From the sequence record OQ689735.1: a stretch of DNA of 64,000 nucleotides, one strand, 5' to 3'. Below are positions 4,952 to 16,204 of this stretch, piece by piece (within the stretch, counting starts at the first letter, position 1; every line of letters begins with the position of its first letter). The DNA is from Escherichia phage 4E10. The notes beneath the pieces are model-generated. The model worked only from the letters and a program-made list of their open reading frames with translations. It was not told where the DNA came from and ran no database searches. The translations under genes were made by a program, and so were the position numbers.

Positions 4952-6517
4952 ATGACTATCAAAACTAAAGCTGAACTTTTGAACAAATGGAAGCCATTAC
5001 TGGAAGGTGAAGGTTTACCGGAAATTGCTAATAGCAAACAAGCGATTATCGCTAAAATCTTTGAAAACCAGGAAAAAGATTTCCAGACAGCTCCAGAATA
5101 CAAAGACGAAAAAATCGCTCAGGCGTTCGGTTCTTTCTTAACAGAAGCTGAAATCGGTGGTGACCACGGTTACAACGCTACTAACATCGCTGCTGGTCAA
5201 ACTTCTGGCGCAGTAACTCAGATTGGCCCAGCTGTTATGGGTATGGTACGTCGTGCTATTCCTAACCTGATTGCTTTCGATATTTGCGGTGTTCAGCCGA
5301 TGAACAGCCCGACTGGTCAGGTATTCGCACTGCGCGCAGTATATGGTAAAGACCCAATCGCTGCCGGCGCTAAAGAAGCATTCCACCCAATGTATGGTCC
5401 AGATGCAATGTTCTCTGGTCATGGTGCTGCTAAGAAATTCCCAGCTTTGGCTGCTAATACCACTACAGTCGTAGGTGACATTTATTCTCACTTCTTCCAG
5501 GAAACTGGTACCGTATATCTGCAAGCTTCTGCTGTCGTAACACTTGATTCTAGTGCGACTGATGCTGCTAAATTAGATGCCGAAGTTAAGAAACAAATGG
5601 AAGCTGGTGCACTGGTAGAAATCGCTGAAGGTATGGCTACTTCTATCGCTGAACTTCAGGAAGGTTTCAATGGTTCTACTGATAACCCATGGAATGAAAT
5701 GGGCTTCCGTATCGATAAACAAGTTATCGAAGCTAAATCTCGTCAGCTGAAAGCTGCTTACTCTATCGAATTAGCACAAGACCTCCGCGCTGTTCACGGC
5801 ATGGATGCTGATGCTGAACTGTCTGGTATTCTGGCTACCGAAATCATGCTGGAAATCAACCGTGAAGTTGTTGATTGGATTAACTACTCAGCTCAGGTTG
5901 GTAAATCTGGTATGACCCTGACTCCGGGTTCTAAAGCTGGTGTATTTGACTTCCAGGATCCGATTGATATTCGTGGTGCTCGCTGGGCGGGTGAATCCTT
6001 TAAAGCTCTGTTGTTCCAGATTGACAAAGAAGCAGTTGAAATTGCTCGTCAGACCGGTCGTGGTGAAGGTAACTTCATTATCGCTTCCCGTAACGTAGTT
6101 AACGTTCTGGCTTCAGTTGATACTGGCATTTCTTATGCTGCACAGGGTCTGGCTACCGGCTTTAACACTGATACTACCAAGTCAGTATTTGCTGGTGTTC
6201 TGGGTGGTAAATACCGTGTATATATCGACCAGTATGCTAAACAGGATTATTTCACTGTAGGTTATAAAGGTCCGAACGAAATGGATGCTGGTATTTACTA
6301 TGCTCCATATGTAGCTCTGACTCCGCTGCGTGGTTCCGATCCGAAGAACTTCCAACCAGTAATGGGATTCAAAACTCGTTACGGTATCGGTATCAACCCA
6401 TTTGCAGAATCCGCTGCTCAGGCTCCGGCTTCTCGCATCCAGAGCGGTATGCCTTCTATTCTGAATAGCCTTGGTAAAAACGCTTACTTCCGCCGTGTAT
6501 ATGTTAAAGGTATCTAA
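4952..6517 (+). CDS. 23: major capsid protein gp23
   Basis: 521-aa ORF; N-terminus MTIKTKAELLNKWKPLLEGEG... matches T4 gp23 from memory. Confidence 0.97.
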   Translation: MTIKTKAELLNKWKPLLEGEGLPEIANSKQAIIAKIFENQEKDFQTAPEYKDEKIAQAFGSFLTEAEIGGDHGYNATNIAAGQTSGAVTQIGPAVMGMVRRAIPNLIAFDICGVQPMNSPTGQVFALRAVYGKDPIAAGAKEAFHPMYGPDAMFSGHGAAKKFPALAANTTTVVGDIYSHFFQETGTVYLQASAVVTLDSSATDAAKLDAEVKKQMEAGALVEIAEGMATSIAELQEGFNGSTDNPWNEMGFRIDKQVIEAKSRQLKAAYSIELAQDLRAVHGMDADAELSGILATEIMLEINREVVDWINYSAQVGKSGMTLTPGSKAGVFDFQDPIDIRGARWAGESFKALLFQIDKEAVEIARQTGRGEGNFIIASRNVVNVLASVDTGISYAAQGLATGFNTDTTKSVFAGVLGGKYRVYIDQYAKQDYFTVGYKGPNEMDAGIYYAPYVALTPLRGSDPKNFQPVMGFKTRYGIGINPFAESAAQAPASRIQSGMPSILNSLGKNAYFRRVYVKGI

Positions 6518-6532
6518 TCTTTGACGATTTAA

Positions 6533-6548
6533 GGGACCTTCGGGTCCC
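6533..6548 (+). terminator. UUCG-tetraloop hairpin downstream of gene 23 (GGGACC-UUCG-GGUCCC), followed by U-rich tract
   Basis: Perfect 6-bp GC-rich inverted repeat with ttcg loop seen directly, 16 nt after gene 23 stop. Confidence 0.6.
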
Positions 6549-6565
6549 TTTAGTTGTTTTTATGG

Positions 6566-6573
6566 TATAAATA
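6566..6573 (+). promoter_or_regulatory. T4 late promoter motif TATAAATA upstream of gene 24
   Basis: Exact TATAAATA 28 nt upstream of gene 24 ATG. Confidence 0.5.
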
Positions 6574-6600
6574 AATCATATAAACCAAAAGGAAAGCGCA

Positions 6601-7884
6601 ATGGCTAAAATCAACGAACTTCTGCGCGAATCAACCACAACGAATAGCAACTCAATCGGTCGCCCAAATCTCGTTGCTTTGACTCGCGCTACCACTAAAT
6701 TAATATATTCTGACATTGTAGCAACGCAAAGAACTAATCAACCTGTTGCTGCTTTTTATGGTATCAAATACCTTAACCCAGATAACGAATTTACATTTAA
6801 AACTGGTGCTACTTACGCCGGCGAAGCTGGGTATGTAGACCGAGAACAAATCACAGAATTAACAGAAGAGTCTAAATTAACTCTCAATAAAGGCGATTTA
6901 TTCAAATATAATAATATCGTTTATAAAGTATTAGAAGATACACCATTTGCTGATATTGAAGAAAGCGATTTAGAATTAGCTCTTCAGATTGCAATCGTTC
7001 TTTTAAAGGTTCGTCTATTTTCTGATGCTGCAGTAACAAGCAAATTTGAAAGCTCTGATAGTGAAATTGCGGATGCTAGATTCCAGATTAATAAATGGCA
7101 AACCGCAGTTAAATCTCGTAAACTTAAAACTGGCATCACAGTTGAATTAGCACAAGATTTAGAAGCAAATGGATTCGATGCTCCTAATTTCTTGGAAGAT
7201 TTGCTTGCAACCGAAATGGCGGATGAAATCAATAAAGATATTCTGCAGTCTTTGATTACAGTATCAAAACGCTATAAAGTTACAGGAATTACTGATACTG
7301 GATTCATTGATTTGAGTTATGCATCTGCACCTGAAGCTGGTCGTTCATTATACCGAATGGTGTGTGAAATGGTTTCACATATCCAGAAAGAATCAACTTA
7401 TACAGCAACGTTCTGTGTTGCTTCAGCTCGCGCCGCTGCGATTCTTGCTGCATCAGGTTGGTTAAAACATAAACCAGAAGATGACAAATATCTTTCACAA
7501 AATGCCTACGGGTTCTTAGCTAATGGTTTACCGCTTTATTGCGATACCAACAGCCCATTGGATTATGTAATCGTGGGTGTAGTAGAAAATATTGGTGAAA
7601 AAGAAATTGTTGGATCAATTTTCTATGCTCCGTATACAGAAGGCCTTGACTTAGATGACCCTGAACATGTAGGTGCATTTAAAGTTGTAGTTGATCCAGA
7701 AAGTTTGCAGCCATCTATCGGTTTATTAGTTAGATATGCTTTATCTGCAAATCCTTACACTGTAGCAAAAGATGAAAAAGAAGCAAGAGTAATTGACGGT
7801 GGAGACATGGATAAAATGGCGGGTCGTTCAGATTTGTCTGTTTTATTAGGTGTTAAGCTACCAAAAATTATCATTGATGAATAA
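6601..7884 (+). CDS. 24: capsid vertex protein gp24
   Basis: 427-aa ORF, size and position of T4 gp24; gp23-like fold motifs. Confidence 0.93.
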   Translation: MAKINELLRESTTTNSNSIGRPNLVALTRATTKLIYSDIVATQRTNQPVAAFYGIKYLNPDNEFTFKTGATYAGEAGYVDREQITELTEESKLTLNKGDLFKYNNIVYKVLEDTPFADIEESDLELALQIAIVLLKVRLFSDAAVTSKFESSDSEIADARFQINKWQTAVKSRKLKTGITVELAQDLEANGFDAPNFLEDLLATEMADEINKDILQSLITVSKRYKVTGITDTGFIDLSYASAPEAGRSLYRMVCEMVSHIQKESTYTATFCVASARAAAILAASGWLKHKPEDDKYLSQNAYGFLANGLPLYCDTNSPLDYVIVGVVENIGEKEIVGSIFYAPYTEGLDLDDPEHVGAFKVVVDPESLQPSIGLLVRYALSANPYTVAKDEKEARVIDGGDMDKMAGRSDLSVLLGVKLPKIIIDE

Positions 7885-7890
7885 AACAAA

Positions 7891-7906
7891 GGGACCTTTC
7901 GGTCCC
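7891..7906. terminator. hairpin between convergent genes 24 (+) and rnlB (-): GGGACC-UUUC-GGUCCC, likely bidirectional terminator
   Basis: Inverted repeat gggacc tttc ggtccc flanked by A-run on one side and T-run on the other. Confidence 0.6.
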
Positions 7907-7913
7907 TTTTTAT

Positions 7914-8918
7914 TTAACTTACCAATTCAATCCAAGCCGGACGAAGTACATCTTGTACCATTTTAACTAATTCCTTTTTAACCAAAGAAGGACTATCCGC
8001 TTGAGTTAGAGTAATACCTTCACGAGAAGTTTCTTCCAAAATATCTTGAACAGTTAGTCCCATCACCTTTCCAAAATCTTTTGGACCAATTTCGCCAATT
8101 TTAGAAATAACGTTATTTACTCGGTTCAGTGTAACGTAACAAGCTAAAATTCCCACCAATTTGTTATCAGCTTCTGACAGTTCAACTTTAGCTTTAATAG
8201 GCTTATCAGACTTTTTCTTTTCACTAAATTTAGAGTTCTTGCATTTGATGGCTACACGATTGCGATTAGGCAGCCAAGAAGGATAACAAGGTTTCAATAC
8301 ATATCCTTCAGCGGTAAATACTTCGCCTTTTGCTTCGGCATTCCAAACGCATTTATTTGCATCAACTAATCCAGCGTGGTCTGCTGCAAAATTATAATCT
8401 TGGACGACAGAATCTAAATCATTTGGCAATTTAATAAGTTCTTCAAATTTACCGCGACCTAAAAGTGGAGCCATTTTAAATTTAAATGTATTACAGAATG
8501 ATTCCATCATATAATCATCGACATAAGTCACATCACCACTTTCTGTAGTAACAATAATGTCAAATACATAAAAATCTTTATCGCCATAATCGACATTCTT
8601 CTGAATGCCAGGTCCGGCGAATTCACCGAAGACTTGATAAGATACAACCGCTGAAGTTTCCATAATATCTTGTACTGCTTTAATGGAATCAGCGTAATTC
8701 TTCAAAATAATTTCATACCCAAAGAAATCTTCAGCAGGAAGAATAGGACCAGTACGTTTAGCGCAAGTTACTTTATCACGCTCAATAATCAATGAGAAAT
8801 TTGTGCCGTGAATTTTTTCACGAGCTACCCACTCCCCACCAGTCAATCCCAAGCTATAAAGTTTTTCAATAAATTTAGAGTTGTAATGATTTTCAAGACT
8901 GCTATACTTTTTAAACAT
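7914..8918 (-). CDS. rnlB: RNA ligase 2 (Rnl2)
   Basis: 334-aa ORF; T4 Rnl2 size; nucleotidyltransferase KxHGxN motif ([10 protein letters not shown]) near N-terminus. Confidence 0.9.
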
Positions 8919-8927
8919 AATTAATCC

Positions 8928-9206
8928 TCAAAATGTAATTTCTAACCAATCACCATCACGCTGATCACTATTGACTTTAAAGCTAAATCCTTCTTTTCTC
9001 AGCCAATCACCAATTTCTTCAGTAATCAATTTATCACGAGCAATACAATAATAACTAAAATGCGTTTTACCTCGTTCAGCTGCTTTATTAGCAAGTTCCG
9101 AAAAATCTTTAATAAAACATTCTAGCTTAAACTGTTTACTTTTGAATGCTTTTTCGCGTAATTGATTAGCAAAAGATTCATTTTCATAAAGATCATACTG
9201 TTCCAT
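8928..9206 (-). CDS. hypothetical protein (position of T4 24.2)
   Basis: 92-aa ORF with ATG start, tightly packed between rnlB and next gene. Confidence 0.6.
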   Translation of the reverse strand: MEQYDLYENESFANQLREKAFKSKQFKLECFIKDFSELANKAAERGKTHFSYYCIARDKLITEEIGDWLRKEGFSFKVNSDQRDGDWLEITF

Positions 9207-9408
9207 TTTTCACCTTTTTATTGATATGTCTTTTTCTATAGACAACTTTTTCTCGAGTTTCAAATTTATTCTTAGCAGTCATAGCTCGAGCCCATAATAC
9301 AGCCACTTCTTTTGCCTGTAAGTTTAATTCACGAGCAATTTCAATGAATGACTTTCCAGACTCATGAAGAGTAAACACCACAACCTCAGTTCTCATAATC
9401 AATCTCAT
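9193..9408 (-). CDS. small basic protein with helix-turn-helix-like segment (position of T4 24.3)
   Basis: 71-aa ORF; segment KSFIEIARELNLQAKEVAVLWARA resembles an HTH; basic C-terminus. Confidence 0.55.
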   Translation of the reverse strand: MRLIMRTEVVVFTLHESGKSFIEIARELNLQAKEVAVLWARAMTAKNKFETREKVVYRKRHINKKVKNGTV

Positions 9409-9477
9409 GTTATCGAGTTGGTACCATTATATACATCATTTTCTGATTGTGTTTTGTGTGCTTTCAAAATGAAGAAA

Positions 9478-9491
9478 GGGGCCGAAGCCCC
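9478..9491 (-). terminator. hairpin downstream of hoc (GGGGC-UUCG-GCCCC on - strand) followed by U-rich tract
   Basis: ggggccgaagcccc on + strand, 7 nt after hoc stop. Confidence 0.55.
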
Positions 9492-9497
9492 TTATGA

Positions 9498-10916
9498 TTA
9501 TGGATAGGTATAGATGATACCAGTTTCTAAAGCAGTTTTATGAATGATATATCCATTACGCGATTCTTGGACATCAACTTCTGGATAGTCTTTCATCATC
9601 TTCTGAAGAGTGTAACGATGCAGGTAGTATTTACTATCTGAATCTTCAGTTTTCCAATCTTTACCTTCTTCAGTCATTTTTTGAATTTCATCCATAACCC
9701 ACCAACCGCACCAGATATAAGCTGAGCTACGATGTGGAAGAGGATGAACATAAGGTAATTCACCTTCTGGTTCCGGAGCAACTTTATCAGTCACTTGAAC
9801 TTGACCTGTGGCTTTAACTGTTTTACTATCATAGTCAGTTGCTGTAACGACAGCAGTAACTTCAATAGTTTGACTTCCAATAGATGAGGTATCAACAGTA
9901 TATACGTTAGTTGACCCTTCCACAGGAGAAGAATCTTTCTTCCATGAGTAAGTAATTTGTGCTGCTTCAGGTGCGCCAGTAACATTAGCAGTAAATGTAG
10001 CCGAAGCATCTTGCTGAACATTAATAGAAGGAGGAGTCAATGTAACCTGTGGATTCATTGTCTTCTTATTAACTGTCAATGATACTTCATTGGAAGTAAC
10101 TGTTTTTGCGTCATAATCCGTTGCTGTTACTTGGGCTACGCATTTAATTCTTTTTACTCCACTTGTAGTTGGAGTATAGTTAAATGTAGAGTTAGTTTCT
10201 CCACCAACTTGTGAATCATCTACATACCACTGATACGTGGCAGACGCTCCATCAGGTTGAGAAACTAAAGCAGCAGTAAATTGAACCGGGGTTCCAATTA
10301 CTCCAACAGCAGGACTAGCAGGAGTTACTGCTAAGGTAGTTGTCTGTGTCTTTTTATTAACCGTCAATGATACTTCATTAGAAGTAACTTCCTTTGCATC
10401 ATAATCTGTCGCGGTTACTTGAGCTACACACTTAATTTTTTTAACTCCGCTTGTGGAAGGAGTGTAATTGAATGTAGCAGAAGTTGCTTCGCCCACAGGA
10501 GAACCGTCAACGTACCATTGATACGTAGCAGATGCACCTGATGGCTGTGAAGCTAAGGCAGCGGTAAATTCAACAGCTGTTCCGATTACTCCTTCTGGAG
10601 GACTATTAGGAGTTACTGCTAAGGTAGTTGTCTGTGTCTTATTTTGAACTGTGATAGTTGTAGTAACTGTAGCTGTTTCAGCTTCAGCTTCTGGAACTGG
10701 GTTTGTTGCAACTACTTTAATAGTCTTTTGACCGGCAGGTCCTTTTAGTACATAGCTAAAAGTTGCTGACGTTTCTTCCTGCGGAGCGTCGTCTACAGTC
10801 CAAGCATATGTAATAGGTCCATCTCCAGTTTGACCACTGGGTGTAGCAGTAAACTGCTGAGTCTGATCTATAACTCCAGTAGGTGTTTTAGGAGTTATAT
10901 CAACGGTAAAAGCCAT
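9498..10916 (-). CDS. hoc: highly immunogenic outer capsid protein Hoc, with four tandem Ig-like domains plus capsid-binding C-terminal domain
   Basis: 472-aa ORF; N-terminus and C-terminal region (PEPEGELPYVHPLPHRSSAYIWCGWWVMDEIQKM...) match T4 Hoc from memory; about 96 aa longer than T4 Hoc (376 aa). Confidence 0.9.
   Translation of the reverse strand: MAFTVDITPKTPTGVIDQTQQFTATPSGQTGDGPITYAWTVDDAPQEETSATFSYVLKGPAGQKTIKVVATNPVPEAEAETATVTTTITVQNKTQTTTLAVTPNSPPEGVIGTAVEFTAALASQPSGASATYQWYVDGSPVGEATSATFNYTPSTSGVKKIKCVAQVTATDYDAKEVTSNEVSLTVNKKTQTTTLAVTPASPAVGVIGTPVQFTAALVSQPDGASATYQWYVDDSQVGGETNSTFNYTPTTSGVKRIKCVAQVTATDYDAKTVTSNEVSLTVNKKTMNPQVTLTPPSINVQQDASATFTANVTGAPEAAQITYSWKKDSSPVEGSTNVYTVDTSSIGSQTIEVTAVVTATDYDSKTVKATGQVQVTDKVAPEPEGELPYVHPLPHRSSAYIWCGWWVMDEIQKMTEEGKDWKTEDSDSKYYLHRYTLQKMMKDYPEVDVQESRNGYIIHKTALETGIIYTYP
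10068..10640 (-). repeat. tandem duplication (2 x 288 bp) inside hoc encoding two near-identical Ig-like domains
   Basis: Protein residues 93-187 and 189-283 are about 85 percent identical (KTQTTTLAVTP...YDAK.VTSNEVSLTVN); nucleotide blocks around 10073 and 10361 near-identical. Confidence 0.8.
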
Positions 10917-10925
10917 AAGTTATCC

Positions 10926-11606
10926 TTATTTTAATGTTACGAAAGAAGAATTGCGTGTTTCACGAATTAGAACTGATCCGTCACGATTAATGTAGTAAAT
11001 TAAGCTAAATAAAGTTTGGTGTGCCGACGCGTGTTCAAAACTAGTTGGGTGAGATTTCCAATCCGGAGTTTCAGCAATCCACTGGTAAATCCACCAAGGA
11101 ACAGTGCAAAATCCTGGATTTTTTCCAATCAGCTGAAGATTCGGGCTAAAGTTTTCCGGAAGAGTAAATACAGACGGCTTTTCAGATTCAATAATCTCAG
11201 CTACAGCCTGTTCGAATTTTTCTTCAACGAAAGGAGTATCTTCAATCAAAATATTGGTATTTTCAGGAATTTTATCCGTTTCTACGACTTCAATTTTAAT
11301 GTCAGATTTAACCGGAGAATCAATCAGAAGTGCTGCTTCTGGATTGACTTCTTCATCGTCATTTTTTAACCCCTCTGCAGCATCAGCAGCATCGATTAAG
11401 TCTTTAATAGATAACCCATCAGTCTCTGGCATAGGTTCACTAGCGAGCTTCTGGAGGGCTTCTTCAATATCAACAACGATATTATCAAAAGATTTATTCT
11501 TTTTGACTTTTATACCAAACTGTTCAGCATATTCAGCTAATTTAGCTTTAGCTTCTTTATTATCATCAAGAGCCTTCAGCTCTGCAATATAATCTTTATC
11601 TATCAT
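10926..11606 (-). CDS. inh: inhibitor of prohead protease Inh
   Basis: 226-aa ORF, same size and position as T4 inh, downstream of hoc. Confidence 0.8.
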   Translation of the reverse strand: MIDKDYIAELKALDDNKEAKAKLAEYAEQFGIKVKKNKSFDNIVVDIEEALQKLASEPMPETDGLSIKDLIDAADAAEGLKNDDEEVNPEAALLIDSPVKSDIKIEVVETDKIPENTNILIEDTPFVEEKFEQAVAEIIESEKPSVFTLPENFSPNLQLIGKNPGFCTVPWWIYQWIAETPDWKSHPTSFEHASAHQTLFSLIYYINRDGSVLIRETRNSSFVTLK

Positions 11607-11619
11607 AATATTTCCTCAG

Positions 11620-11627
11620 TATAAATA
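11620..11627 (+). promoter_or_regulatory. T4 late promoter motif TATAAATA upstream of uvsW
   Basis: Exact TATAAATA 30 nt upstream of uvsW ATG. Confidence 0.5.
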
Positions 11628-11656
11628 TAGATATATTTATTACATGGTATTTAGAC

Positions 11657-13168
11657 ATGACTGACATTAAAGTACATTTTTATGATTTTAGTCACGTGAG
11701 AATTGATTGTGAAGAAAGTACATTTCATGAACTCCGTGATTTCTTTAGCTTTGAAGCTGATGGGTATCGTTTTAATCCGAAATACAAATATGGTCACTGG
11801 GATGGACGAATCCGTCTTTTAGATTATAATCGTCTTCTTCCATTCGGCTTAGTCGGGCAAATTAAAAAGTTCTGTGATAACTTTGGCTATAAAGCCTGGA
11901 TTGACCCACAAATTAACGAAAAAGAAGAATTATCAAGAAAAGATTTTGATGAATGGATTTCTAAATTAGAAATCTATTCAGGAAATAAAAGAATTGAACC
12001 ACACTGGTATCAAAAAGATGCAGTGTTCGAAGGATTAGTTAATCGTCGTAGAATTCTTAATCTTCCAACATCCGCAGGTAAATCTTTAATTCAAGCTTTG
12101 CTTGCTCGATATTATTTGGAAAATTATGAAGGTAAAATTCTTATCATTGTTCCAACAACTGCTCTGACAACTCAGATGGCTGATGACTTTGTTGACTATC
12201 GTTTATTCAGTCATGCAATGATAAAGAAAATCGGCGGTGGAGCATCAAAAGATGATAAATATAAAAATGATGCACCAGTCGTTGTTGGTACATGGCAAAC
12301 TGTAGTAAAACAACCGAAAGAATGGTTCTCACAGTTTGGAATGATGATGAATGATGAATGTCATCTTGCTACAGGAAAAAGTATTTCATCTATCATATCA
12401 GGTTTAAATAACTGTATGTTTAAATTTGGTTTGTCTGGTTCATTACGTGATGGCAAAGCTAATATCATGCAGTATGTTGGAATGTTTGGTGAAATATTTA
12501 AGCCAGTAACGACTTCTAAATTAATGGAAGATGGACAAGTAACTGAGTTAAAAATTAATAGTATTTTTCTTCGCTATCCCGATGAGTTCACTACTAAATT
12601 AAAGGGAAAAACTTACCAAGAAGAAATAAAAATTATTACTGGACTCAGTAAAAGAAATAAATGGATCGCTAAATTAGCTATTAAGCTTGCGCAAAAAGAT
12701 GAAAACGCTTTTGTCATGTTTAAGCATGTATCACATGGTAAAGCTATTTTCGATTTAATTAAAAATGAATACGATAAAGTTTATTACGTATCAGGGGAAG
12801 TTGATACCGAAACCCGCAATGTAATGAAAACCTTAGCTGAAAACGGTAAAGGAATAATTATAGTAGCTAGTTATGGTGTATTTTCTACTGGTATTTCAGT
12901 TAAAAATCTGCATCACGTTGTTTTAGCACACGGTGTTAAATCTAAAATTATTGTATTGCAAACAATAGGTCGCGTATTACGTAAGCATGGTTCTAAAACA
13001 ATCGCAACAGTCTGGGATCTTATAGATGATTGCGGTGTTAAGCCAAAATCTGCTAATACGAAAAAGAAATACGTTCATTTGAACTATCTTTTAAAACACG
13101 GCATTGATCGTATTCAGCGCTACGCAGATGAAAAATTTAATTACGTAATGAAAACAGTTAATTTATAA
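11657..13168 (+). CDS. uvsW: UvsW DNA/RNA helicase (SF2, recombination and replication restart)
   Basis: 503-aa ORF; Walker A LPTSAGKS, DECH box (MMMNDECHLA); size matches T4 UvsW. Confidence 0.95.
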   Translation: MTDIKVHFYDFSHVRIDCEESTFHELRDFFSFEADGYRFNPKYKYGHWDGRIRLLDYNRLLPFGLVGQIKKFCDNFGYKAWIDPQINEKEELSRKDFDEWISKLEIYSGNKRIEPHWYQKDAVFEGLVNRRRILNLPTSAGKSLIQALLARYYLENYEGKILIIVPTTALTTQMADDFVDYRLFSHAMIKKIGGGASKDDKYKNDAPVVVGTWQTVVKQPKEWFSQFGMMMNDECHLATGKSISSIISGLNNCMFKFGLSGSLRDGKANIMQYVGMFGEIFKPVTTSKLMEDGQVTELKINSIFLRYPDEFTTKLKGKTYQEEIKIITGLSKRNKWIAKLAIKLAQKDENAFVMFKHVSHGKAIFDLIKNEYDKVYYVSGEVDTETRNVMKTLAENGKGIIIVASYGVFSTGISVKNLHHVVLAHGVKSKIIVLQTIGRVLRKHGSKTIATVWDLIDDCGVKPKSANTKKKYVHLNYLLKHGIDRIQRYADEKFNYVMKTVNL

Positions 13169-13180
13169 GGGCTTCGGCCC
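13169..13180 (+). other. intercistronic hairpin GGGC-UUCG-GCCC between uvsW and uvsW.1
   Basis: gggcttcggccc immediately after uvsW stop, followed by UUU and SD of next gene. Confidence 0.45.
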
Positions 13181-13193
13181 TTTGGAGAAAAAG

Positions 13194-13424
13194 ATGTTAC
13201 TAGAATTTAAACAATTTCTTTATGAAGCTTCTATTGATGAATTTATGGGTAAAATTGCCTCTTGTCAAACGATAGAAGGTCTAGAAGAACTTGAAGCTTA
13301 TTATAAGAAAAGAGTTAAAGAAACTGAATTAAAAGATACTGATGACATCTCAGTCAGAGATGCTTTGGCAGGAAAAAGAGCTGAATTAGAAGATTCAGAC
13401 GATGAAGTAGAAGAAAGCTTTTAA
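13194..13424 (+). CDS. uvsW.1: UvsW.1 small acidic protein
   Basis: 76-aa product from ATG at 13194 with GGAG SD (track starts at TTG 13182); position of T4 uvsW.1. Confidence 0.7.
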   Translation: MLLEFKQFLYEASIDEFMGKIASCQTIEGLEELEAYYKKRVKETELKDTDDISVRDALAGKRAELEDSDDEVEESF

Positions 13425-13479
13425 ATTAAAAAAGGCCCAACCAAAAAGGAAGGGCCAAAACTATAGACTAAAGGTCACA

Positions 13480-13647
13480 CTATAGCAAAAGTTGTGTTTC
13501 ATTTAATTGTTCTTCCGAACTTTCTGAAACTGGTAGTTCTTTAATGTAATTATAGCAAGGCCCAGGATGTACAGGACCTTTGTCTGTTTCAACAACCAAT
13601 GCAGAATCGATTGGAGTTTTACAGACAACGCAAATCTTATCTGACAT
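13480..13647 (-). CDS. small Cys-containing protein (position of T4 uvsY.-2), 55 aa, not in ORF track
   Basis: Manual translation of - strand: MSDKICVVCKTPIDSALVVETDKGPVHPGPCYNYIKELPVSESSEEQLNETQLLL; GAGGAG SD 7 nt upstream; late promoter motif upstream. Confidence 0.55.
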   Translation of the reverse strand: MSDKICVVCKTPIDSALVVETDKGPVHPGPCYNYIKELPVSESSEEQLNETQLLL

Positions 13648-13672
13648 GATTGTCTCCTCTAAATTATATATC

Positions 13673-13680
13673 TATTTATA
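13673..13680 (-). promoter_or_regulatory. late promoter motif TATAAATA (- strand) upstream of the 55-aa ORF
   Basis: tatttata on + strand = TATAAATA on - strand, 26 nt upstream of ATG at 13647. Confidence 0.45.
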
Positions 13681-13900
13681 TAACTCTCATATGCATATCA
13701 ATGCCCATATCTTTAGAATAAAAATATTCATCAAGATATCCAGCAAATTTTCCTTTAACATAAAGTACATCTTCACCGCATGGGTGGTCGGTCAGGATAC
13801 GAATATCCTGACGCTTGAGATTGTACTTTTTCATTAAGAATTGAATTTCCGTTTCAAATTCTTCTTCATAATTAAAAGCATCATCAATGCTATATTTCAT
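13676..13900 (-). CDS. hypothetical protein (position of T4 uvsY.-1)
   Basis: 74-aa ORF with ATG start overlapping uvsY stop. Confidence 0.65.
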   Translation of the reverse strand: MKYSIDDAFNYEEEFETEIQFLMKKYNLKRQDIRILTDHPCGEDVLYVKGKFAGYLDEYFYSKDMGIDMHMRVI

Positions 13901-14313
13901 TATTTTCCAGCCTCAAATGCTCGCATGTCTTGAATATGCTTAATAGCAAATCCGCGTGATTTAATAGCATCAAGAGCTCCGCTACAGAAATCCAATAAAA
14001 TTCCCCAATATTGTAATGAAGTATCAACTTTTAAAACATCCTTATCAGCTGATAGAACTGTCTTCATTTCTGATTTCTCATAACGGTCCATACTAAATTC
14101 ATCACCATCTCCTCGTCCCGAGTAGTAGTCTAATTTAGCTTTAAGAGCAACTTTTTTCTGCGCATCAATTCTAAGCATTTCCTTTTTAATACTTGAATGC
14201 TTATTGAGCCATTTACTATATAACATCACATTATTAGCTGCTTCATACTGTAATTTAGTCGAATCTATAAACACATCTTTCTTCAATTCTTCTTGAAGAT
14301 CTTCTAATCTCAT
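13900..14313 (-). CDS. uvsY: UvsY recombination mediator protein
   Basis: 137-aa ORF; sequence MRLEDLQEELKKDVFIDSTKLQYEAANNVMLYSKWLNKH... matches T4 UvsY from memory. Confidence 0.92.
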   Translation of the reverse strand: MRLEDLQEELKKDVFIDSTKLQYEAANNVMLYSKWLNKHSSIKKEMLRIDAQKKVALKAKLDYYSGRGDGDEFSMDRYEKSEMKTVLSADKDVLKVDTSLQYWGILLDFCSGALDAIKSRGFAIKHIQDMRAFEAGK

Positions 14314-14379
14314 ATTGTTCTCTATTCAATTGTTATTGGATGGACTTAGATTCATTATACCACGTTTATACGTGAAGCA

Positions 14380-14778
14380 TTATACTCTGTTACTGGAAGC
14401 CAGTTGTAGTTTTATCTGCTCAATATCATCAGGGTTATCGATGACTGAAAAGCGTATTTCTACTATCAGAGTATAATCATCATAAACCGGTATTACATTA
14501 ACTGCTAATTTATCAATACGTGGCTCGTAGTTTCTTACTGCGCTTTCAATGTTACGCTCAACGGTATCAGCAGTAAGAGGAGTCATATTCTCAAAAAGCT
14601 GATCAGATAAATCGCATCCAAATTCTGGGTCAAATGGCCTTGACCCTTTCCTGGTTGTAATAATTCCTAAAAGGCTATTTTTAATTGACCTTAATCCAAG
14701 AGATCTTGAAACATCTTTGTCCCAATCCATTTTCATTTCTGGGTCAATGTCAGAATAAAGCTTATTAATATTTGCCAT
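14380..14778 (-). CDS. 25: baseplate wedge subunit gp25
   Basis: 132-aa ORF, size and position of T4 gp25; GPW/gp25 family features. Confidence 0.88.
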   Translation of the reverse strand: MANINKLYSDIDPEMKMDWDKDVSRSLGLRSIKNSLLGIITTRKGSRPFDPEFGCDLSDQLFENMTPLTADTVERNIESAVRNYEPRIDKLAVNVIPVYDDYTLIVEIRFSVIDNPDDIEQIKLQLASSNRV

Positions 14779-15404
14779 TACAATAGCTCAAAGAATTCTT
14801 TGAGCCCTCTTATTACATGAGCGTGAGTTTTTCCACACTCTGGACACTTAATTGGAACAGCCAAATAAACAGTAGGCTTTAAAAGCATATCTTTTATAGC
14901 TACAATATCTGACTCTGTGATGATAGAGTATAAATCTTCCAGTTCTTTTTCATTTAAGTCTTCAACTGGAATGCTTTCACCATTAGCATGAATCGTTTCT
15001 ATGCATGATACTATCATGTGGGCTATATTTTTATCATCAAAAATTTTAGGGTAATGGAACTTAATTTTAATGTCACCCAGTGTATACCAGAGGTCTTCTG
15101 GTGCATCTATTTGTGTATGTAATAGATTTATATGGGTTGGTATTTCAGTTCCACAGGTGCACTTCCAGGAGTTTTCGTGATTAACTTCTCCAAGAGAATG
15201 CGCCCATAAATGAATCAACAGTAGTTCTGATTCTTGACGGTTTAAATCTTTTGCATTTGTACAGTCTTTAATTAGCTTTTTAACGATCTCTTCTACTGAA
15301 CCGTTCTTTTTAGCAGTAATAAGTTCTAGATATTCTTTAAGAGTAAATGCGCGGCAGTTGATTATTTTAGAACCAACTCTCACGTCAAATTTGTATTCAT
15401 ACAT
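14778..15404 (-). CDS. 26: baseplate hub subunit gp26
   Basis: 208-aa ORF; start overlaps... stop overlaps gene 25 start; T4 synteny. Confidence 0.82.
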
Positions 15405-15425
15405 ATTTAGCTCCTTTATTTATCA

Positions 15426-15433
15426 TATTTATA
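15426..15433 (-). promoter_or_regulatory. late promoter motif TATAAATA on - strand for genes 26-25
   Basis: tatttata on + strand 22 nt upstream of gene 26 ATG. Confidence 0.45.
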
Positions 15434-15437
15434 AATA
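15430..15437 (+). promoter_or_regulatory. late promoter motif TATAAATA on + strand for gene 51
   Basis: Exact TATAAATA 18 nt upstream of gene 51 ATG; overlaps the - strand motif (palindromic core tttataaata). Confidence 0.5.
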
Positions 15438-15454
15438 GAATAAAAGGAGCATCT

Positions 15455-16204
15455 ATGGCAAACATTATTCGTTGTAAATTACCAGATGGTGTTCATCGTT
15501 TTAAACCATTTACGGTAGAAGATTATCGAGATTTTTTGTTAGTTCGAAACGATATAGAACATCGGTCACCACAAGAACAAAAAGAAATAATTGCTGATTT
15601 AATTGCTGATTATTTTGGAGACTATCCGAAGACTTGGCAACCATTTATATTTTTGCAGGTATTTGTAGGGTCAATAGGTAAAACTAAAGTACCGGTCACA
15701 TTTGTGTGTCCAAAATGTAAAAAAGAAAAGACAGTTCCATTTGAAATATATCAAAAAGAATTAAAGGAACCTGTTTTTGATGTAGCTAATGTTAAAATTA
15801 AATTAAAGTTTCCTTCTGAGTTTTATGAAAATAAAGCAAAGATGATTACTGAAAATATTCATTCTGTTCAAGTAGATGAAATATGGTATGATTGGAAGGA
15901 AATTAGCGAATCGAGTCAAATAGAACTTGTTGATGCCATCGAGATAGAAACATTAGAAAAAATTCTCGATGCAATGAATCCTATTAATTTAACATTGCAT
16001 ATGTCATGTTGTAATAAGTATGTAAAAAAATACACTGATATAGTAGATGTGTTTAAGCTATTAGTTAACCCAGATGAAATATTTACTTTTTATCAAATCA
16101 ATCACACGCTCGTAAAAAGTAATTATAGCTTAAATTCAATAATGAAAATGATTCCTGCTGAGCGCGGATTCGTATTAAAACTGATTGAGAAGGATAAACA
16201 ATAA
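15455..16204 (+). CDS. 51: baseplate hub assembly catalyst gp51
   Basis: 249-aa ORF, same size and position as T4 gp51. Confidence 0.85.

Follow-up and report, generated by a model that had tools for sequence, protein, structure and literature searches.

The analyzed window was a 64,000-nt stretch of the genome of Escherichia phage 4E10 (OQ689735.1). The gene hoc, which in T4-like phages encodes a non-essential decoration protein of the outer capsid, was found in it on the minus strand (Table 1). The gene order rnlB–24.2–24.3–hoc–inh–uvsW was the same as in T4, according to the comparison of the open reading frames with the T4 annotation (NC_000866), and hoc occupied its conserved genomic position between 24.3 and inh, which it shares with the gene for T4 Hoc (NP_049793, 376 aa; PDB 5vf3 and 8t1x). 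A terminator has been annotated at the position equivalent to that of the hairpin downstream of hoc in phages G2133, fPS-90, and PhAPEC2.

Several features of the neighboring genes were also recorded. The 24.3 homolog (9193–9408) encoded 71 aa and overlapped 24.2 by 14 nt; its counterparts have 61–71 aa (186–216 bp) in most relatives and 56 aa in T4. The gap between inh and uvsW (11607–11656) was only 50 nt long; phage 4E10 is devoid of segE, the homing-endonuclease gene that is located there in T4 (T4 positions 112057–112674). The uvsW gene was represented by a 503-aa ORF (11657–13168), followed by a separate 80-aa uvsW.1-like ORF (13182–13424). A single uvsW of 587 aa, with sequence discrepancies noted, is present in the RefSeq record of T4, and the records of related phages list two helicase CDS.

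Table 1. Coordinates of the hoc gene of phage 4E10, its domains, its direct-repeat arms, and the downstream hairpin (positions in the window).
Feature	Position	Strand	Remarks
hoc CDS	9498..10916	minus	472 aa + stop; capsid-binding domain at the C-terminus, preceded by four Ig-like domains
Ig-like domain 1 (D1), aa 1–92	10641..10916	minus	Counterpart of T4 Hoc domain 1; aligns with T4 residues 1–103
Repeat unit A, aa 93–188	10353..10640	minus	Ig-like domain extra relative to T4; PKD and BiPBP_C Pfam matches
Repeat unit B, aa 189–284	10065..10352	minus	Counterpart of the T4 Hoc middle domain 2; PKD Pfam match at 197–254
D-last (last Ig-like domain), aa 285–380	9777..10064	minus	Corresponds to domain 3 of T4 Hoc; Pfam matches to Ig_3 and I-set at 289–374
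C-terminal capsid-binding domain, aa 381–472	9501..9776	minus	Near-identical to T4 Hoc 285–376
First 33 nt of unit A	10608..10640	minus	Same sequence as the start of unit B; arm 1 of the best direct repeat for in-register loss of a unit
First 33 nt of unit B	10320..10352	minus	Same sequence as the start of unit A; arm 2 of that direct repeat
Terminator-like hairpin (AAGGGGC-TTCG-GCCCCTT) with a T run after it	9476..9493	minus	Begins 5 nt past the hoc stop codon

The gene is hoc. Among solved structures, T4 Hoc (5vf3_Z) was the sole sequence match to its product (phmmer against PDB, E = 1e-214), and a 100% identical protein has been deposited under the name 'capsid and scaffold protein [Escherichia phage 4E10]'. 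The C-terminal domain homologous to residues ~281–376 of T4 Hoc was present, the last 92 residues being almost identical; among relatives, this capsid-binding domain had a dN/dS of 0.03–0.04 and a DNA identity of 97%. The linear string of Ig-like domains in the N-terminal part was also present (Pfam matches to PKD, Ig_3, Ig_2, and I-set).

The sequence-only reading had given 472 aa for this protein and 376 aa for T4 Hoc. Both lengths were confirmed: the former by the ORF, the latter by the T4 annotation (NC_000866, hoc at 110187–111317) and by PDB entry 5vf3_Z. Residues 1–103 of 4E10 Hoc aligned with residues 1–103 of T4 Hoc, and residues 185–472 with residues 89–376 (581 bits); the alignment in two blocks thus placed 96 extra residues in the middle of the protein. 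Domains 1, 2, and 3 of T4 Hoc correspond to D1, unit B, and D-last of 4E10 Hoc, respectively. T4 has one middle unit, of the B type, whereas 4E10 has an additional A-type unit (96 aa, 288 bp) upstream of it. One Ig-like domain more than in T4, which had been proposed from the sequence, was evident from the alignment, from the Pfam matches, and from the structural model.

The repeat was detected by Tandem Repeats Finder as a single array at 10059–10640, with a period of 288, 2.0 copies, 80% matches, and a score of 747. The span proposed earlier, 10068–10640, was thus essentially right; the units in codon register occupied 10065–10640. The comparison of 10059–10346 with 10347–10634 was free of gaps, and together with the codon register it confirmed the presence of two tandem in-frame 288-bp units within hoc. 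The identity of the two domains had been put at about 85%, which was close to the value for the protein (80 of 96 residues, 83%); the DNA identity of the units was 79%. In the self-comparison of the protein, the repeat was clearly above the background: a sharp peak of 116 matches was found at offset 96, other offsets mostly gave ~25–45 matches, and the next value, 56, was at offset 95. The longest perfect match between A and B in the 4E10 gene was 33 nt, at the unit starts; the last 36 nt of the two units differed at 3 positions. D-last was only distantly related to the A/B unit and did not belong to the 288-bp repeat family. The repeat search also revealed a 34-nt motif (family D2) that occurs once in each domain.

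In the AlphaFold2 model, built with 28 homologs, residues 1–380 formed four beta-sandwich domains with mean pLDDT values of 80–96 over 10-residue blocks (80–94 for D1 and about 88–96 for unit A). The C-terminal domain, modeled without the capsid, had low pLDDT. The pTM value of the model was 0.52, and the geometry between the domains was uncertain. The best fold matches to the model in PDB (Foldseek) were strings of four Ig domains—Sidekick and Dscam Ig1–4. According to the model and the Pfam matches, the repeat unit is one Ig-like domain. Since four domains were modeled with confidence and the best fold matches were four-Ig strings, the Hoc fiber of 4E10 can reasonably be expected to be one Ig domain longer than that of T4. 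The T4 Hoc fiber is 180 Å long; one copy of the protein sits in the middle of every gp23 hexamer, and it binds mucin glycans (PMC10385173). Amino acid variation among 163 units was higher in the predicted loops than in the strands (entropy of 0.55 vs. 0.25 bits, p = 0.03), a pattern that fits variable patches at the surface of a conserved Ig framework.

Unit counts of 1, 2, 3, and 4 were found among the relatives of 4E10, corresponding to Hoc lengths of 376, 472, 568, and 664 aa. In the DNA clustering of 25 phages, A-type units were always the first; B-type units were the second, the middle, or the sole ones; and C-type units were always the last. The A-then-B positional pattern was also found by protein painting in 119 protein-cluster representatives. 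The sole unit of T4 was of the B type and had 92.4% DNA identity to unit B of 4E10. Single-unit Hoc occurred in an A-only form (CM8, HX01, L005) and in a B-only form (T4, ZN18, RB10). The C type was carried by pSs-1 (A–C), YUEEL01 and ESh26 (A–B–C, 568 aa), and Sfk20 (A–B–B′–C, 664 aa). The Hoc proteins of YUEEL01, ESh26, UGKSEcP1/2, and Sfk20 have the same unit family, D1, D-last, anchor, and 288-bp period as that of 4E10 and differ from it in having three (A–B–C) or four (A–B–B′–C) units instead of two. Among phages assigned to a single species, Tequatrovirus pss1, Hoc of Sfk20 has four units (L042, 46–2040) and that of pSs-1 has two (L032, 301–1719). The first two units of Sfk20 were teqskov-like, and the last one was like that of YUEEL01/ESh26, which suggests the joining of two alleles.

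The A–B arrangement of 4E10 was shared by the 472-aa Hoc proteins of PP01, AR1, RB27, slur04, teqskov, fPS-90, BF15, and ECO07P4 (88–100% protein identity). Other 472-aa Hoc proteins of Tequatrovirus differed from that of 4E10 only by point changes and by patches of mosaic sequence in the variable loops; the array of pSs-1 is A–C and not A–B. The first six of these carriers, as well as pSs-1, represent different Tequatrovirus species, and annotations of the 472-aa allele are present in many genomes in GenBank. The best 120 protein clusters comprised 81 of 376 aa, 30 of 468–472 aa, and 9 of 567–570 aa; of 50 full-length matches spread evenly over 678 phage records, 18 were ~1419 bp and 32 were ~1131 bp in length. 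The two-unit 472-aa Hoc is thus present in an estimated one third of the sampled Tequatrovirus genomes; these frequencies are estimates, the protein set being the best 120 clusters at 90% clustering and the DNA set being 25 hoc genes.

Assembly errors classically arise at tandem repeats, and a mis-assembled repeat could have inflated hoc by one unit. However, reads are placed unambiguously, given the 21% of positions that differ between the two units; the reading frame is intact; and the architecture is shared by 29 further protein clusters of 468–472 aa and by many complete genomes. An artifact of this kind is hardly credible.

The hoc gene was a local hot spot of divergence: the surrounding 11 kb (5000–16000) was 97% identical to pSs-1 and to other phages, and hoc was 89.8% identical to that of pSs-1. 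The identity of 4E10 hoc to any record was at most 96% and typically about 90%; it was the Ig part that had diverged, with 97% identity kept in the C-terminal anchor.

The divergence of the units was analyzed in 25 hoc genes at the DNA level, with pS, dS, and dN calculated by the Nei–Gojobori method. Fixed 96-codon frames anchored at the C-terminus served as the unit register, the boundary motifs being too variant for motif-based splitting; hoc of phage ECML-134, which contains an internal stop, was left out of the codon analyses. Units A and B of 4E10 had a pS of 0.55, a dS of 0.99, and a dN of 0.106, and dS between A and B over all phage pairs was about 0.95. Among 11 two-unit phages, dS between units of the same position was 0.31 for unit 1 and 0.30 for unit 2, and that of the flanking domains was 0.26 for D1 and 0.29 for D-last. 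The dS between A and B in 4E10 was about three times that of same-position units. The synonymous sites of A and B are near saturation, and the protein is conserved. In the DNA clustering, unit A of 4E10 grouped with the first units of BF15, ECO07P4, G2133, and PP01 at 94–97% identity, and unit B grouped with the second units of the same phages; the identity of the 4E10 units to the other unit type was only 72–82%. Concerted evolution of A and B was considered and rejected: the within-phage A–B identity (0.75–0.80) was the same as the between-phage mean (0.779).

From the presumed high nucleotide identity of the units, the sequence-only reading had suggested a recent duplication, a claim that our data do not sustain. 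The duplication of one Ig unit in the 4E10 lineage, with copies that are still actively unstable, would agree with units that are adjacent, in frame, exactly equal in length, and so similar in protein. It is contradicted by the low DNA identity and by the divergence between A and B, which was not below but far above that of same-position units (0.99 vs. ~0.30). Both units were closer to their same-position counterparts in BF15 and ECO07P4 than to the other type, and the perfect match between them was short. Furthermore, the array was not confined to one genome or a shallow clade: ~36% of the sampled full-length hoc genes, in several species, contained two units, and A–B was found in PP01, AR1, RB27, slur04, teqskov, fPS-90, and others. 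The near-saturated dS, the much closer same-position units, and the shared A-then-B arrangement therefore indicate that the duplication is not recent, and its recent origin in the lineage of 4E10 is very improbable. A very recent lateral spread of the whole A–B allele is disfavored by the dS of ~0.3 within each unit type.

Judging from that within-type value, the A–B tandem is no younger than the diversification of the two-unit phages in the sample. The dS between the units dates the unit types and not necessarily the time when they were joined in tandem. Because the alleles are heavily mosaic, dating by dS is limited to the unit types, which are themselves not clean lineages.

Regarding changes in unit number, relatives differed by whole units with collinear and similar flanks, as in a copy-number-variable array. 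Phages pSs-1 and ESh26, with 99.3% identity in D1 and 99.7% identity in unit 1, differed by exactly one 288-nt unit; the best-fitting breakpoint was at nt 555–563, at the unit boundary (nt 564). In the boundary codons (the first 11 and the last 12 of the unit), pS between A and B was 0.38 overall and 0.16 in 4E10, and the same-position values were 0.26–0.33; in the unit interior, pS between A and B was 0.57 vs. 0.24 for the same position. Such a pattern would be expected if paralogous units had exchanged sequence at their boundaries. Constraints on codons or RNA, rather than exchange, could account for part of this signal, and the phages in the comparison are non-independent. We failed to find in the sampled Hoc set any multi-unit protein with units more than 85% identical; thus, the arrays appear to have been built from pre-existing, diverged unit types.

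These findings bear on the way in which the tandem was formed. A and B may have diverged as alternative alleles of the sole middle domain in different one-unit phages and been brought into tandem later, by one unequal crossover between co-infecting genomes at the conserved boundary of the unit. The tandem would then be younger than the A/B divergence and still older than the sampled two-unit phages. Such a merger of alleles is favored by the existence of A-only and B-only Hoc, by the absence of near-identical units from the sampled arrays, by the concentration of exchange at the unit boundaries, and by the array of Sfk20, which resembles a teqskov-like A–B joined to a YUEEL01-like B′–C. However, the A-only and B-only forms are equally explained as deletions from an A–B ancestor via the repeats at unit starts or unit ends. 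The signal of direction is erased by mosaicism, and the distant Hoc proteins available as outgroups had no clear counterparts of A or B (30–40% identity). We regard the merger as possible, if rather unlikely.

The locus had also been described as prone to copy-number change by unequal recombination. This was true on the evolutionary scale, where one to four units were found and pSs-1 and ESh26 differed by a single one; within one phage stock, the instability of 4E10 hoc is probably low. T4 recombination is reported to drop steeply below about 50 bp of homology (Singer et al. 1982). The low instability expected in a stock would follow from this requirement and from the 33-nt longest perfect repeat in units of 79% identity, which would make a poor substrate.

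It is highly probable that 4E10 carries a common and old A–B allele of hoc, in which four Ig domains are placed on a conserved anchor, the repeat units are diverged paralogous types, and the unit number would have been changed by recombination at the boundaries. Along with this, the fiber would be longer, and effects on interactions with glycans and mucus may follow. In this explanation, A and B would be old paralogous unit types with interiors at synonymous saturation and an Ig framework under purifying selection. The number of units would change, most likely, by in-register homologous recombination in the conserved ~70 nt spanning the unit boundaries, and the exchange would often take place between different alleles during mixed infections. 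Recombination would then shuffle the existing A, B, and C types without the creation of identical duplicates. A crossover between unit starts would yield D1–B, the architecture of T4, and a crossover between unit ends would yield D1–A, the architecture of CM8 and HX01; both predicted single-unit classes, A-only and B-only, occur among the relatives.

In a more elaborate scheme, the middle region of Tequatrovirus hoc would work like a set of cassettes. At least three old types of unit (A, B, C) would be kept in a fixed order, and their ~70-nt boundaries, remaining similar between paralogous units, would serve as recombination joints; mixed infections would reassort the number and type of units, tuning the length of the fiber and its glycan specificity, and arrays of identical units would be unstable and therefore lost or counter-selected. 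We consider this scheme doubtful.

Other alleles of hoc were observed outside the group of close relatives or in an altered form. In the genus Mosigvirus, HX01 and PhAPEC2 had a Tequatrovirus-type hoc with 86–88% identity over the full length; in RB69, of the same genus, the match was confined to the last 273 nt, i.e., the capsid-binding domain. This pattern points to a probable lateral exchange of the Ig-domain part of hoc between the genera. In ECML-134 (L033, 301–1431) and also in vB_EcoM_SCS4, hoc was annotated as two CDS, because of an internal stop after codon 305, which marks either a phage naturally defective in hoc or an error of sequencing. Two Hoc proteins (P0034 and P0066) were labeled 'endonuclease' in assemblies of Shigella sonnei and Bacillus cereus, most likely as a result of contamination of the bacterial assemblies with T4-like phages and of a wrong product name. 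A chimeric Hoc of 567 aa with five Ig-like domains (P0053) had a Tequatrovirus-like D1, first unit, and C-terminal domain, and its next three Ig-like domains were much more divergent.

The IMG/VR scan yielded only four close relatives, the remainder being distant Hoc proteins with a variable number of domains. Among them, the contigs of one distant Hoc lineage (L006–L012, hoc start at position 1501, ~50% identity) encoded four, three, or two Ig-like domains (~471, 375, and 280 aa, respectively). Their extra domains resembled D-last-like domains and not the A/B unit. The differences in domain number within this lineage indicate that the gain and loss of Ig-like domains recur independently in Hoc.

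Hoc mediates the adherence of phages to mucus and serves as a display scaffold in T4 vaccine and vector platforms. Most of its homologs consist of Ig-like domains in a row, phage Muldoon having as many as ten (PMC10385173), and the number of Ig-like domains in Hoc varies widely among T4-like phages (PMC13435897, PMC10385173, PMC11853027). Hoc-like proteins with four Ig-like domains in Klebsiella phage PMBT63, with ten in Serratia phage Muldoon (which has a second protein with two), and with two in phiPNJ-9 are, like that of 4E10, Ig-like strings on a Hoc capsid-binding domain, but their sequences are distant. Our literature search revealed general statements on the variable number of domains in Hoc and no paper on the A/B/C units of Tequatrovirus or on exchange at their boundaries. 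Thus, the variation in the number of Ig-like domains is ordinary and already known, and the A/B/C types and the boundary exchange refine this picture without introducing a system of a new kind.

As an allele, the 472-aa Hoc is common and stable, and its presence is no sign of recent change in 4E10. Since units are added, removed, and reshuffled, most likely by recombination, the length of Hoc is unreliable as a lineage marker. The naturally occurring alleles, which encode 3, 4, 5, or 6 Ig-like domains, would provide ready-made fibers differing in length and surface.
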